DNA of 40,851 nucleotides from the IMG/VR virus record IMGVR_UViG_2721755728_000008, one strand, 5' to 3'. The position numbers are program-made. Positions 30,001 to 33,000 of this stretch are shown one piece after another. Every line of letters begins with the position of its first letter. The first letter of the stretch is position 1. This stretch comes from a virus (lineage: Duplodnaviria; Heunggongvirae; Uroviricota; Caudoviricetes).

Positions 30001-33000
30001 AACTTTTTAATTTCCGTTGCCGCTCTGCGGGCTTTTTTTACCAAAAATACCAAACATCGTGACGTTCCTTTGGGTGGGTGAGCCAACGCCCGGGAGCGAT
30101 CTGCCCACAGAGAAAGTCACACTGACCACTCCATAAGCTCCCCCCGAAAGGCTCTGTGGTTGGTATGCGCCGGGCGTGGTGCGGATACAAAAAAGGTCCG
30201 CAAAAGCGAGCGAGGGAAAATAAGTGTGGTGCGTTGTACTGGGTTCGAACCAGTGACCGATTGCTTAGAAGGCAATTGCTCTGTCCGGCTGAGCTAAAAA
30301 CGCAGAATACCGATAATGGACCGCCATCGGAGACTCGAACCCCGCGAAACCAGCTTCGAAGGCTGGCGTTCTATCCCGATGAGCTAATGGCGGTATGTGA
30401 TGGTGGCCCTTGCTGGATTTGAACCAGCGGCCTGGCGATTATGAGTCGCTCGCTCTCACCACTGAGCTAAAGGGCCGGGCGCAGGATAATAACGTTACGA
30501 AATCAATGTTGCAAGCATTCAAGAATCACCTGGTTAAAAATTACCCTTGCTTCCTCCACCAGCGCATTCACCATGTCTATCCGAGATAAGTGGCACAAAA
30601 AAACCCGCTTGTGGGCGGGTTTTGTTTGCTTTTGCCATCACGTACAAAATCGGCAAAATATCAGATTTGCATGAAATATATGCCTTTCAATCTACTTTTG
30701 CAACACTTTGCTTTGAAAATGCCGCCTTTTGTTTTGAACGCGTTCTCATTACAAACAATAAAGCCTCACTATCCAGTCGGTGAAAAATGTGTTTCATTGC
30801 AACCCAGTGACGAGTAAATGTTTTGGACCAGTTTTTAGTTGTCACTCCCACCAGTAATGCCAGCTCCTTGTATTCATAACCTTCCCCACCAAAAAGTTCT
30901 GCTTTTACTGCCTGCGCCGCCAGCCAGATTAATTTTTTCAGGCGTTCCTGCGTTTTCCCTGCAATTTTTCTGGTACCGGATTGAGTATTAAATTCATTCC
31001 ACGCCCACTGTGTTATCGCGATCTGATATTCCCAACAAATACTCCCGCTGTAACACCACAACAACCAGGCTTTATGATGTTCTTCAAGAGACAGAACAGC
31101 CCGCCGCCACGATGATGTCGAAAACTCAATCGGACTGACCAGAGGAATTGACGTCCCCTTCGCCAGCGATTGCTTTCCCGGGATTGGTGGATTATCCCGC
31201 GTTATCATTTTTCCAGTCACTTCATCGCGGTACCGGATTTTTTTACGCCTGTAACGCCCTGTATCGAACATGGCATTCTCCTGCCAGGCTTCAAGCTGAC
31301 CTTTTGTTGCCCCACTCAAATCAGCGGTGGCGATAATGAGCTGCTCACGCACAAACTGTAAATACTGGTTATTCATGCGCACCCCAGTTCTGTGATTTTT
31401 ATCCCCAACCGCCCACCAGGAACAAGCTGACCGCGCACAATATTAATTTCATCAAACTGCTCGTCGTCTATGAGCAGCCCCGCATGCGTCAGTGCATCCA
31501 GTGGTGCCTTCAGGATATTGTCCAGGTCACGACGGCGCTTATCCGGTGGCTCTGCAATAATTTTTATTGCCAGCCTTCCGGACAGGTTTAATTTCAGTTG
31601 CTGCTGGCGAACAATAAGCGCCACATCACGGCGATAACGCTCACCGACTTTTGATACAAAATATGTGCTGCCACGACGCCGCCAGTAGGTGTTCACCGTT
31701 GGCGGGTAAGGCAAAACAAACTCTATACGCATCAGTAACCTCTTTTACCCGAGCACGCCGGTTGCAAAGGCGTGATCAAGAAAACGAAAAATTAAATCAA
31801 TCTGGGAACCATGCTTTTCTTCGAACGCCAGCGGATCCGCATGAAGCTCGTTGTGATGCTCCCGACACAGCGGTAGCGTGAAAATATCGTGGGATTTTGT
31901 TCCCATCCCTCCCTGACCGTGACCAATCAGGTGATGGGGATCGTCGGCTGGCTGACCACAACACGCACACGGCTGTGTCTTCACCCAGCTCGTATATTTC
32001 TCATTTACCCAACGGCGACGTTTAGGTCGCCTCATGAAAGATTCCGGAGACTCCGGATCAACGGTAATGCTGACCACCGCCTTTTCCTGTGCTGGGTTCT
32101 GTGGCTGGTGGGTGTGAAGCAACGGCGCAAGATTTTTTGTGCGCTGCTTCAGTATGCTGGTGGCGGTCTGCTCTCCCGGTACGATGTCGCTTTCGCGGTA
32201 CAAGGAGCGGATTTTTTCCGCACGCAACCCCAGTGAACGACGTAATACAGCTTCCGGTAGCGCGTCCGCCACCTGATTGCGGACCGCCCACCAGGATAAT
32301 TCAGCCAGAGATAATTCCCGCTCCTGTGTGCCATTCATTGCATGGCGTATGACGTCAATCATCCATGCTGACAGGTTTTGATGAGCAAGTTGCCCGAGTG
32401 ATTCAGAGGTCTGGTCACGCAGCTGGTTGTCGCAGTGCCAGCACAACACCATCGCGCCGGTACCGTAACGATGTATGACGGTTTCACTGTGATGATAGTC
32501 ACCATGAGGCCACTGGCAGGATTTGACATGACGCAACAGCCAGTCAGACAGTGCACCAGCGCCGCCAGCAGCACGAATCACCCGCTCATCGCTGAAAAAT
32601 GGCAGTAATGATTTATCCTCCGCCAGCGGCTGGCGAACGGCAGGAACGACTCCGGACGGCAGACCGCGCATGCTTTTTGGTTCCGGCTCCACCAGCACTC
32701 GAGGGTTATGAAATACCTGCATGGATTCACGGCCCGGCTTAAGGACCACCAGCCCAAGTTCCGGTACCGGAACAGGTCGAAGTAATACCCGCACGTTACC
32801 TCCAGATGCGTTGCTGGAATGTGCGGGACGGACGCGGTGGGCGTTCGGAATAAGGGAGCCTGACGTAGATTATCCAGTGACGATAATCGAGGCTGAGGGC
32901 TTTCCTAAACTCATACCCACGCCTGCGGTAGTTCTGAATCAGCCATTCGGCCTGTTCTTCAGTGCATGGGTCATGCTGGTACCAGTCATATTTGAATGCA

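Follow-up and report, generated by a model that had tools for sequence, protein, structure and literature searches.

Sigma-dependent pausing and antitermination have a textbook example in the late switch of phage 82, and the ileZ-argN-argO tRNA cassette has carried its gene names and annotation ever since Stx phages were first sequenced. Here we describe a locus in which relatives of the two stand side by side: a Q antiterminator gene, its predicted late promoter PR', the terminator tR' and three tRNA genes, lying between positions 30227 and 31376 of IMG/VR virus record IMGVR_UViG_2721755728_000008 (Caudoviricetes; 40,851 nucleotides [nt], the whole of which is called the window below). All features of this unit are on the minus strand.

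Several described systems frame the comparison. Pausing at PR' of phage 82 is induced by an extended -10-like sequence; its -10-like hexamer and a GC-rich element are bracketed by insertions at +9, +15, and +18, GCC occupies +15-17, U +25 (and +26) forms the end of the paused RNA, and a 1-nt insertion at +18 brings G to the pause end (PMC5001585). The same paper cites Guo and Roberts (1990) for initiation slippage at this late promoter. The Q-binding element (QBE) of phage 82 sits between the -35 and -10 of PR', and the lambda late transcript terminates at +193 (PMC4914094). In Stx phages the leader yields StxS, a 258-nt primary transcript processed to 74 nt that goes with a Q protein of 144 amino acids (aa), and in the Sakai Stx2a prophage a primary transcription start has been mapped between tR' and stx2AB, apparently driving the tRNAs (PMC7547250). 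Short PR' RNAs are listed for phages 21, phi80, 82, and P22 in a passage of one review. Genes for tRNAs directly past Q have been reported in SfI, Sf6, ST64T, PS3, and phage 21 (PMC3636060).

Against this background, the region very probably consists of two adjacent and separately mobile modules of a lambda-like prophage: a phage-82-type late switch and a self-promoted ileZ-argN-argO cassette. The argument draws on sequence features that were observed directly, on their conservation, and on homology to annotated and experimentally studied relatives. The title of an earlier note on this DNA implied that the tRNAs are simply part of the late transcript; the note's account of the sequence is correct and its interpretation mostly right, giving partial support overall, but it missed the promoter of the cassette. 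Both parts are already known, and the locus carries little weight as a discovery. The useful outcome is a view of the cassette as an independent, self-promoted module, more than an aid to late genes, that could be of use in a lysogen to the host and to further AT-rich genes acquired horizontally, along with the recognition that a very short PR' leader is the norm for this Q family.

Q gene and late promoter

The Q gene (30687..31376, with the RefSeq start at 31376) encodes a 229-aa protein that belongs to the phage 82 Q family. It matches Pfam PF06323 over its full length (E = 9.8e-93, profile positions 1-217 of 220), shares 76.5% of its residues with phage 82 Q, 73% with phage 434 Q, and 67% with Gifsy-1 AntQ, and is labeled "bacteriophage antitermination protein Q" in RefSeq. 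Three sets of relatives were used: these named ones (GenBank); 80 close relatives from viral contigs, 96-100% identical, which served for cassette statistics and are unsuited to footprinting; and 30 diverse relatives found by a Q-alignment scan of genome contigs, with identity down to 56% and about 12 named enterobacterial genera represented (e.g., Escherichia, Shigella, Kluyvera, Citrobacter, Leclercia, Klebsiella, Raoultella, and Enterobacter). A search of the PDB for solved structures of Q82-family proteins gave a single spurious match only.

The final codons of Q hold the -35 hexamer of PR', TTGCAA (30698..30703), and the TGA stop codon (30689..30687) lies inside the 17-nt spacer (30681..30697) that leads to the -10 hexamer, TATATT (30675..30680). 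The promoter thus straddles the Q stop, just as the earlier note had it; the description "near-consensus" was generous for a pair that, although present, makes 9 of 12 consensus matches. Sites of PR' quality turned up in a promoter scan at 8 per 2.5 kb, versus 2.5 in shuffled sequences, and PR' taken alone does not rise above chance. We accept it as real because of a conserved register across Q82-family loci rather than because of its hexamer score. In 31 such loci (27 distinct sequences, phage 434 included), the -35, the spacer, the -10, an AAA start, and the motif cTGATAT keep one register relative to the Q stop, the -35 beginning 14 nt upstream of that stop and the spacer measuring 17 nt in all aligned loci. 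In the alignment of the 27 distinct sequences these elements are nearly invariant, with variable columns flanking them. TTGCAA itself stands in register in 26 of the 31 anchored loci, among them phage 434, the remainder having TTGCGG, TTGCAT, or TTGCAG; variants of the -10 are TACATT, TATACT, and CATATT. The phage 82 Q record, which stops at the Q stop codon, has TTGCAA at the same place within its last 26 nt. By analogy with phage 82, the spacer at 30681..30697 is the putative site of a QBE.

A separate motif overlaps the PR' -35 on the opposite strand: TTGCN6TTGC, of the lambda CII type, at 30698-30711 (+), directed antisense into Q. A second copy lies at 39742-39755 (-), identical to the first at 13 of 14 positions, and the phage 434 record annotates paQ at the equivalent place. 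A CII-dependent antisense promoter like paQ was considered for this motif and set aside, its count in the window being at chance (3 versus 3.2).

Predicted start site and pause module, and a proposed mechanism

Every published PR' landmark of phage 82 would fit the window if transcription began at A30668, the first A of the conserved AAA. Counting from there, AAA falls at +1-3, TG at +6-7, TATTTT at +9-14, GCC at +15-17, AUUUU at +19-23, G at +24, and U at +25. The predicted sigma-70-dependent pause module (30643..30663) would accordingly comprise TGaTATTTT at +6..+14, GCC at +15..+17, an AT-rich stretch, and a pause at +25/+26; its cTGATAT is nearly invariant among the 27 distinct sequences.

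In the mechanism we propose, PR' would act as a constitutive sigma-70 promoter from which RNA polymerase starts at about A30668. Sigma-70 would re-bind the extended -10-like TGaTATTTT at +6..+14, and the complex would pause at +25/+26. Without Q, transcription would end at tR' to give an RNA of about 72 nt. After induction, Q would bind between the -35 and -10 and load onto the paused complex, and the Q-loaded polymerase would read past tR' and later terminators into the tRNAs and the accessory, lysis, and morphogenesis genes.

Terminator and leader RNA

The intrinsic terminator tR' (30597..30623), recognized from its sequence and fold, consists of the stem AAAACCCGC/GCGGGUUUU (30623..30600) with loop CCACAA and seven U, the U-run ending at 30597. 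The terminator scan reported it on the opposite strand only, A-U pairs having been counted into the stem. The stem starts 52 nt past the -10, or at +46 from A30668, in agreement with the distance of about 50 nt claimed earlier. The terminated RNA is predicted to run from +1 at A30668 to the end of the U-run at +72, and the expectation that it would be much shorter than lambda's also holds (about 72 nt versus termination at +193; PMC4914094). The leader is indeed compact, but this is not specific to the locus: a very short leader is a trait of the Q82 family. Predicted leaders measure 52-85 nt in 22 of 23 distinct cases, the last being 121 nt, and that of phage 434 is 54 nt. The other Q82 loci have a hairpin and T-run at the tR' position, with hairpin sequences unrelated to one another.

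Upstream of tR', the leader can form a hairpin (UUUUGCC/GGCAAAA) at +11..+39 (30630..30658). Folded as this hairpin plus the terminator, the window leader reaches -24.3 kcal/mol (z = -2.9), better than shuffled sequences. RNAalifold on 17 leaders found no consensus fold, MAFFT having misplaced structurally the unrelated terminator and hairpin sequences, and the structural argument is therefore made from folds of individual sequences. Hairpins at +11..+39 recur in leaders of at least 70 nt, in two sequence classes (UGCC..GGCA and GUCG..CGAC), and are absent from leaders of 52-54 nt; the 5' arm overlaps the GC-rich pause element.

The window leader stays below the Rfam thresholds of two known prophage RNAs, scoring 22.7 against 50 bits for isrK and 24.5 against 37 for isrJ (Gifsy-1 itself scores 79.3 and 100.3). 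The window leader and the 258-nt PR' leader of an Stx2a phage (StxS) do not align upstream of the tRNA promoter. In Gifsy-1 (locus L085, 2211-2287), Rfam places IsrK 33 nt past the stop of the Q82-family AntQ, which is the position of a PR' leader. Beyond IsrK come a C4-type antisense RNA, isrJ, and finally a tRNA-Arg(UCU), which has the same acceptor stem as the UCG tRNA of the window.

The three tRNA genes

ARAGORN finds exactly three tRNAs in the 40.8-kb window, with the anticodons CAU, UCG, and UCU that had been read from the sequence before. All three encode their CCA ends and exceed the 29-bit threshold of the Rfam tRNA model. They are a CAU tRNA of ileX/ileZ type (30401..30476; 72.5 bits), a tRNA-Arg(UCG) of argN type (30317..30393; 44.4 bits), and a tRNA-Arg(UCU) of argO type (30227..30303; 63.3 bits).

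The CAU tRNA is ileX-like, as proposed earlier, being identical to K-12 ileX at 68 of 76 positions with compensated differences in the stems. It keeps C4-G69 and C5-G68, pairs that are TilS determinants, and its G1-C72 pair is presumably not of the initiator-tRNA type. The gene is one base away from the annotated ileZ of an Stx2a phage, and an identical gene is labeled tRNA-Ile by PGAP/RefSeq. It is best classed, from these features, as a predicted tRNA-Ile2 of the lysidine type, which would read AUA after modification, and not as tRNA-Met.

The UCG tRNA has G18-G19-A20 in its D loop, as does K-12 tRNA-Arg(ACG). It differs from argN of the Stx2a phage at seven positions, six of them in stems, where five of the changes keep or improve pairing; this allele is carried by 360 of the 5426 complete E. 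coli genomes. The UCU tRNA has U6.C67 where argO has G6-C67, and scores 63.3 bits versus 70.1 for argO of the Stx2a phage. In K-12, argQ, argZ, argY, and argV are annotated as ACG and argU as UCU; argX is CCG and argW is CCU, and we know of no UCG tRNA-Arg gene in the K-12 core. This agrees with the suggestion that the middle gene would add a direct CGA reader.

Taken together, the predicted cassette comprises three tRNAs (CAU first, then UCG and UCU) that are homologs of the named ileZ, argN, and argO. RefSeq annotates tRNA-Ile, Arg, and Arg on DNA identical over this stretch, and GenBank uses the three names on a copy that aligns with the window across the cassette over 366 bases at 92.6% identity; the naming follows these annotations and Schmidt 1997 as cited in PMC3636060.

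Related cassettes vary in what occupies the tRNA slot. After this Q type, the 80 close relatives include 32 with CAT-Lys-Thr-Gly, 22 with CAT-Arg(TCG)-Arg(TCT), and 11 with CAT-Lys-Arg(TCT); in most of the distant relatives the slot is empty or holds a single Arg(TCT). In many related cassettes the middle tRNA has a UUU (Lys) anticodon on the acceptor, D, and T arms of the Arg(UCG) tRNA (compared for L087 2466-2542 and L001 3387-3462 against window 30393-30317). When intact, the Lys form reaches 44.4 bits and is labeled tRNA-Lys by PGAP, and 798 of 5426 complete E. coli genomes have it; the middle tRNA of PPompW, with a deletion in the D arm, falls below the Rfam threshold. An exchange between Arg(UCG) and Lys(UUU) on one backbone may possibly represent natural switching of tRNA identity within a prophage cassette.

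A promoter belonging to the cassette

The element that the earlier reading lacked is a promoter immediately ahead of the tRNAs (30477..30514), located by scan and by conservation. Its -35, TTGCAA (30514..30509), is separated by 17 nt from a -10, TATTAT (30491..30486), that ends 9 nt ahead of the first tRNA. The GC-rich CCTGCGCCC fills the space between -10 and tRNA, and the region upstream of the -35 is A+T-rich. A GC-rich stretch past the -10 combined with an A+T-rich upstream region is typical of stable-RNA promoters under stringent control. The hexamers are invariant in 82 copies, within which the spacer and the post--10 stretch vary, and a cassette with a wholly diverged spacer still has TTGCAG-17-TATTAT. 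In the Stx2a phage WGPS6, whose Q, PR', and leader are unrelated, similarity to the window begins just upstream of the cassette -35 and spans the three tRNAs and the hairpin downstream.

These features, together with the start mapped in this interval (between tR' and stx2AB) in the Sakai Stx2a prophage, indicate that the cassette carries its own sigma-70 promoter of the stable-RNA type, with predicted activity here. With such a promoter, the tRNAs would probably be made in the lysogen without Q as well as by read-through after induction. Three products (readers of AUA, of CGA/CGG, and of AGA/AGG) would then be present in the Q-free lysogen, and read-through after induction would boost their output. 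The idea that the tRNAs are simply the head of the late transcript gives way to that of a separate module.

Past the cassette is a weakened terminator-like hairpin with a T-run (30189..30212), recognized by comparing folds with those of the Stx2a phage and PPompW. The hairpin, GGCUCGC/GCGGGCC, has -13.8 kcal/mol in the Stx2a phage and -14.2 kcal/mol in PPompW. Two substitutions destroy it in the window, where the segment folds differently (-7.0 kcal/mol, z = -1.7).

Codon usage

The possibility that the tRNAs serve the late genes was checked on a crude gene set, the longest non-overlapping open reading frames (ORFs), a few of which are probably spurious. Per 1000 codons, the late genes (8077 codons) have ATA 7.1, AGA 5.3, AGG 5.7, and CGA 5.1, and the early and accessory genes upstream of Q (2506 codons) have ATA 22.3, AGA 9.6, AGG 6.4, and CGA 7.6. 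K-12 averages on the same scale are about 4 for ATA, 2 for AGA, 1 for AGG, and 3.5 for CGA. AUA, AGA, and CGA are thus slightly raised in late genes and much commoner in early and accessory genes, which does not favor that possibility. The major capsid gene has no ATA, AGA, or CGA at all, and the cassette is not tuned to structural late genes. Greater demand for rare codons in AT-rich accessory genes fits a self-promoted module.

A PerC-family regulator gene in the late region (24309-23995, -) has four CGA and three AGA in 103 codons, a density of cassette-read codons among the highest in the window; the ORF at 1..981 is similar.

Prophage context

Over 12 kb around the locus, the sequence matches at 100% identity a prophage of E. 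coli strain C3 that adjoins a tRNA-Ser gene beside mtfA and yeeJ and has a DicA/DicC-type immunity region and a late region resembling lambda's. A 651-nt core is 100% identical in many O157:H7 genomes, and some part of it is present in 3156 of the 5426 complete E. coli genomes. Where Stx phages have stx, this prophage has a TerB-family pseudogene and a DUF3927 gene, and next comes a gene for a SASA-family esterase. The TerB-family gene (30053-29625, -) has an in-frame TAG at 29921-29919; RefSeq marks an "internal stop" in C3, and the gene is intact in 86-24.

Between the DUF3927 and esterase genes lies a strong match to the STnc100 small-RNA family (29284-29456, -; Rfam, 100.8 bits), which also occurs just past stx2B in an Stx2a phage (L002 4731-4942; 154 bits). 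Chi sites (GCTGGTGG) number 8 in the window versus 1.9 expected, with six on the minus strand between 25200 and 34215. One of them, at 30563-30556 (-), lies between tR' and the tRNA promoter, and Chi is found at the same place in loci L089 and L115. Among the morphogenesis genes, the portal gene (20690-19137, -) matches the intact C3 protein in three frames, implying two frameshifts, and part of the K/I tail-gene region (8309-8760) is inverted.

Weighing the alternatives

Several points count against the two-module interpretation or temper it. The correspondence with phage 82 is an agreement with positions quoted in papers rather than an alignment, X92588 ending at the Q stop. The start site, the pause, and termination at this locus are all projected from relatives, as are Q binding and the charging and modification of the tRNAs. 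The UCG tRNA has an unusual C1-G72 pair together with U73, and its charging by arginyl-tRNA synthetase is only predicted; each of the Arg tRNAs has one stem mismatch (C11.A24 in UCG, U6.C67 in UCU). The prophage also appears defective, unless its lesions are assembly errors, and Q-dependent late expression may no longer matter in the host.

If the pair TTGCAA/TATATT were a chance match, with the true late promoter elsewhere, its 9-of-12 score would be unremarkable given how common such sites are in the scan and in shuffles. That reading is scarcely credible in view of the fixed register and near-invariance over 27 distinct sequences, the agreement of all the published phage 82 landmarks, and the terminator directly downstream. 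A single late operon, in which the tRNAs are made solely by Q-modified read-through of tR' and the second promoter-like site is non-functional, draws on the fact that the tRNAs lie 120 nt past tR' on the same strand, so that read-through must include them, and on a score of just 9 of 12 for the second site. We consider it very unlikely, because the hexamers of that site are held invariant in 82 copies while spacer and post--10 stretch vary, and are kept even beside a diverged spacer, and because Stx2 phages with another Q module become homologous to the window at a point just upstream of the cassette promoter.

Decay is another alternative. The mismatches in the two Arg tRNAs, the lower Rfam score of the UCU tRNA relative to argO, the frameshifted portal gene and TerB pseudogene, and the clearly degraded middle tRNA of the related PPompW cassette could mean that the cassette, or at least both Arg tRNAs, is a non-functional relic in this defective prophage. 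We hold this improbable: all three tRNAs clear the Rfam threshold comfortably, pairing is preserved or improved by five of the six stem changes that separate the UCG tRNA from argN, 334 records contain the UCG tRNA at 100% identity, and the CCA ends and promoter hexamers are intact. A further suggestion would add to the two-module interpretation rather than replace it, namely that the RNA of about 72 nt running from PR' to tR' is itself a regulator like StxS or IsrK. It would be made constitutively in lysogens, its fold has a hairpin at the 5' end joined by an A-rich linker to a U-tailed terminator, and short RNAs at the same genetic position do regulate, as StxS does in Stx phages and IsrK after Gifsy-1 AntQ. 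Set against this are the lack of similarity to StxS, isrK and isrJ scores far below threshold, poor conservation of the leader past the pause module, and the absence of the 5' hairpin from short leaders, and we regard a regulatory role as unlikely, if worth keeping in view. The more specific form of the idea, in which the RNA acts in trans in O157:H7 and other E. coli lysogens, is unrelated to StxS and IsrK, and uses a functional +11..+39 hairpin, is more doubtful still. Short PR' transcripts of Q82-type prophages are very common in E. coli, and the locus may offer a natural test bed for such questions.

Comparison with known systems

Lambda, with its PR', 6S RNA, and tR', shares the general plan of a constitutive promoter, a sigma-dependent pause, Q loading, and a terminator. 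It differs in having a Q of the unrelated family PF03589, a pause at +16/17, an RNA of about 193-194 nt, and no tRNAs afterwards.

Two small RNAs occupy comparable positions. IsrK of Gifsy-1 (RF01394) is an RNA of about 77 nt that lies about 30 nt past the stop of a Q82-family gene and ends at an intrinsic terminator, so that its genetic position and size match those predicted here, next to a Q that is 67% identical. Its sequence has no significant match to the window leader, the Gifsy-1 promoter has TTGACA and lacks cTGATAT in the same register, and orf45-anrP rather than tRNAs follow. StxS of the Stx1/Stx2a prophages (PMC7547250) is likewise a by-product of PR'/tR' control in an O157 prophage, and in the Stx2a phage the tRNA promoter and the same cassette lie downstream. 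Unlike the RNA predicted here, it derives from a 258-nt primary transcript processed to 74 nt, accompanies Q proteins of the 144-aa family, and has no sequence in common with the window leader.

For the late switch, the closest likeness is to the phage 82 late region studied by the Roberts and Hochschild laboratories: the Q family is the same, the -35 TTGCAA sits in the end of Q, the start is at AAA, the extended -10-like pause element, GCC at +15-17, and U at +25 fall at the published positions, and a terminator is close behind. The Q proteins differ at about one-quarter of residues; of the spacer with the putative QBE, the phage 82 record shows 11 positions, and 4 of these are different. For the tRNAs, it is to ileZ-argN-argO of the Stx2a phage. 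Here the cassette follows a Q82-type switch, and there a 144-aa Q with a 258-nt StxS leader; the slot downstream holds the TerB-family pseudogene and DUF3927 gene here and stx there; and in the window each Arg tRNA has one extra mismatch and the post-cassette hairpin is weakened. What the two loci have in common is the cassette itself: the three tRNAs keep their order and their spacers at 91-93% identity, lie between tR' and the accessory-gene slot, and are preceded by the same promoter.

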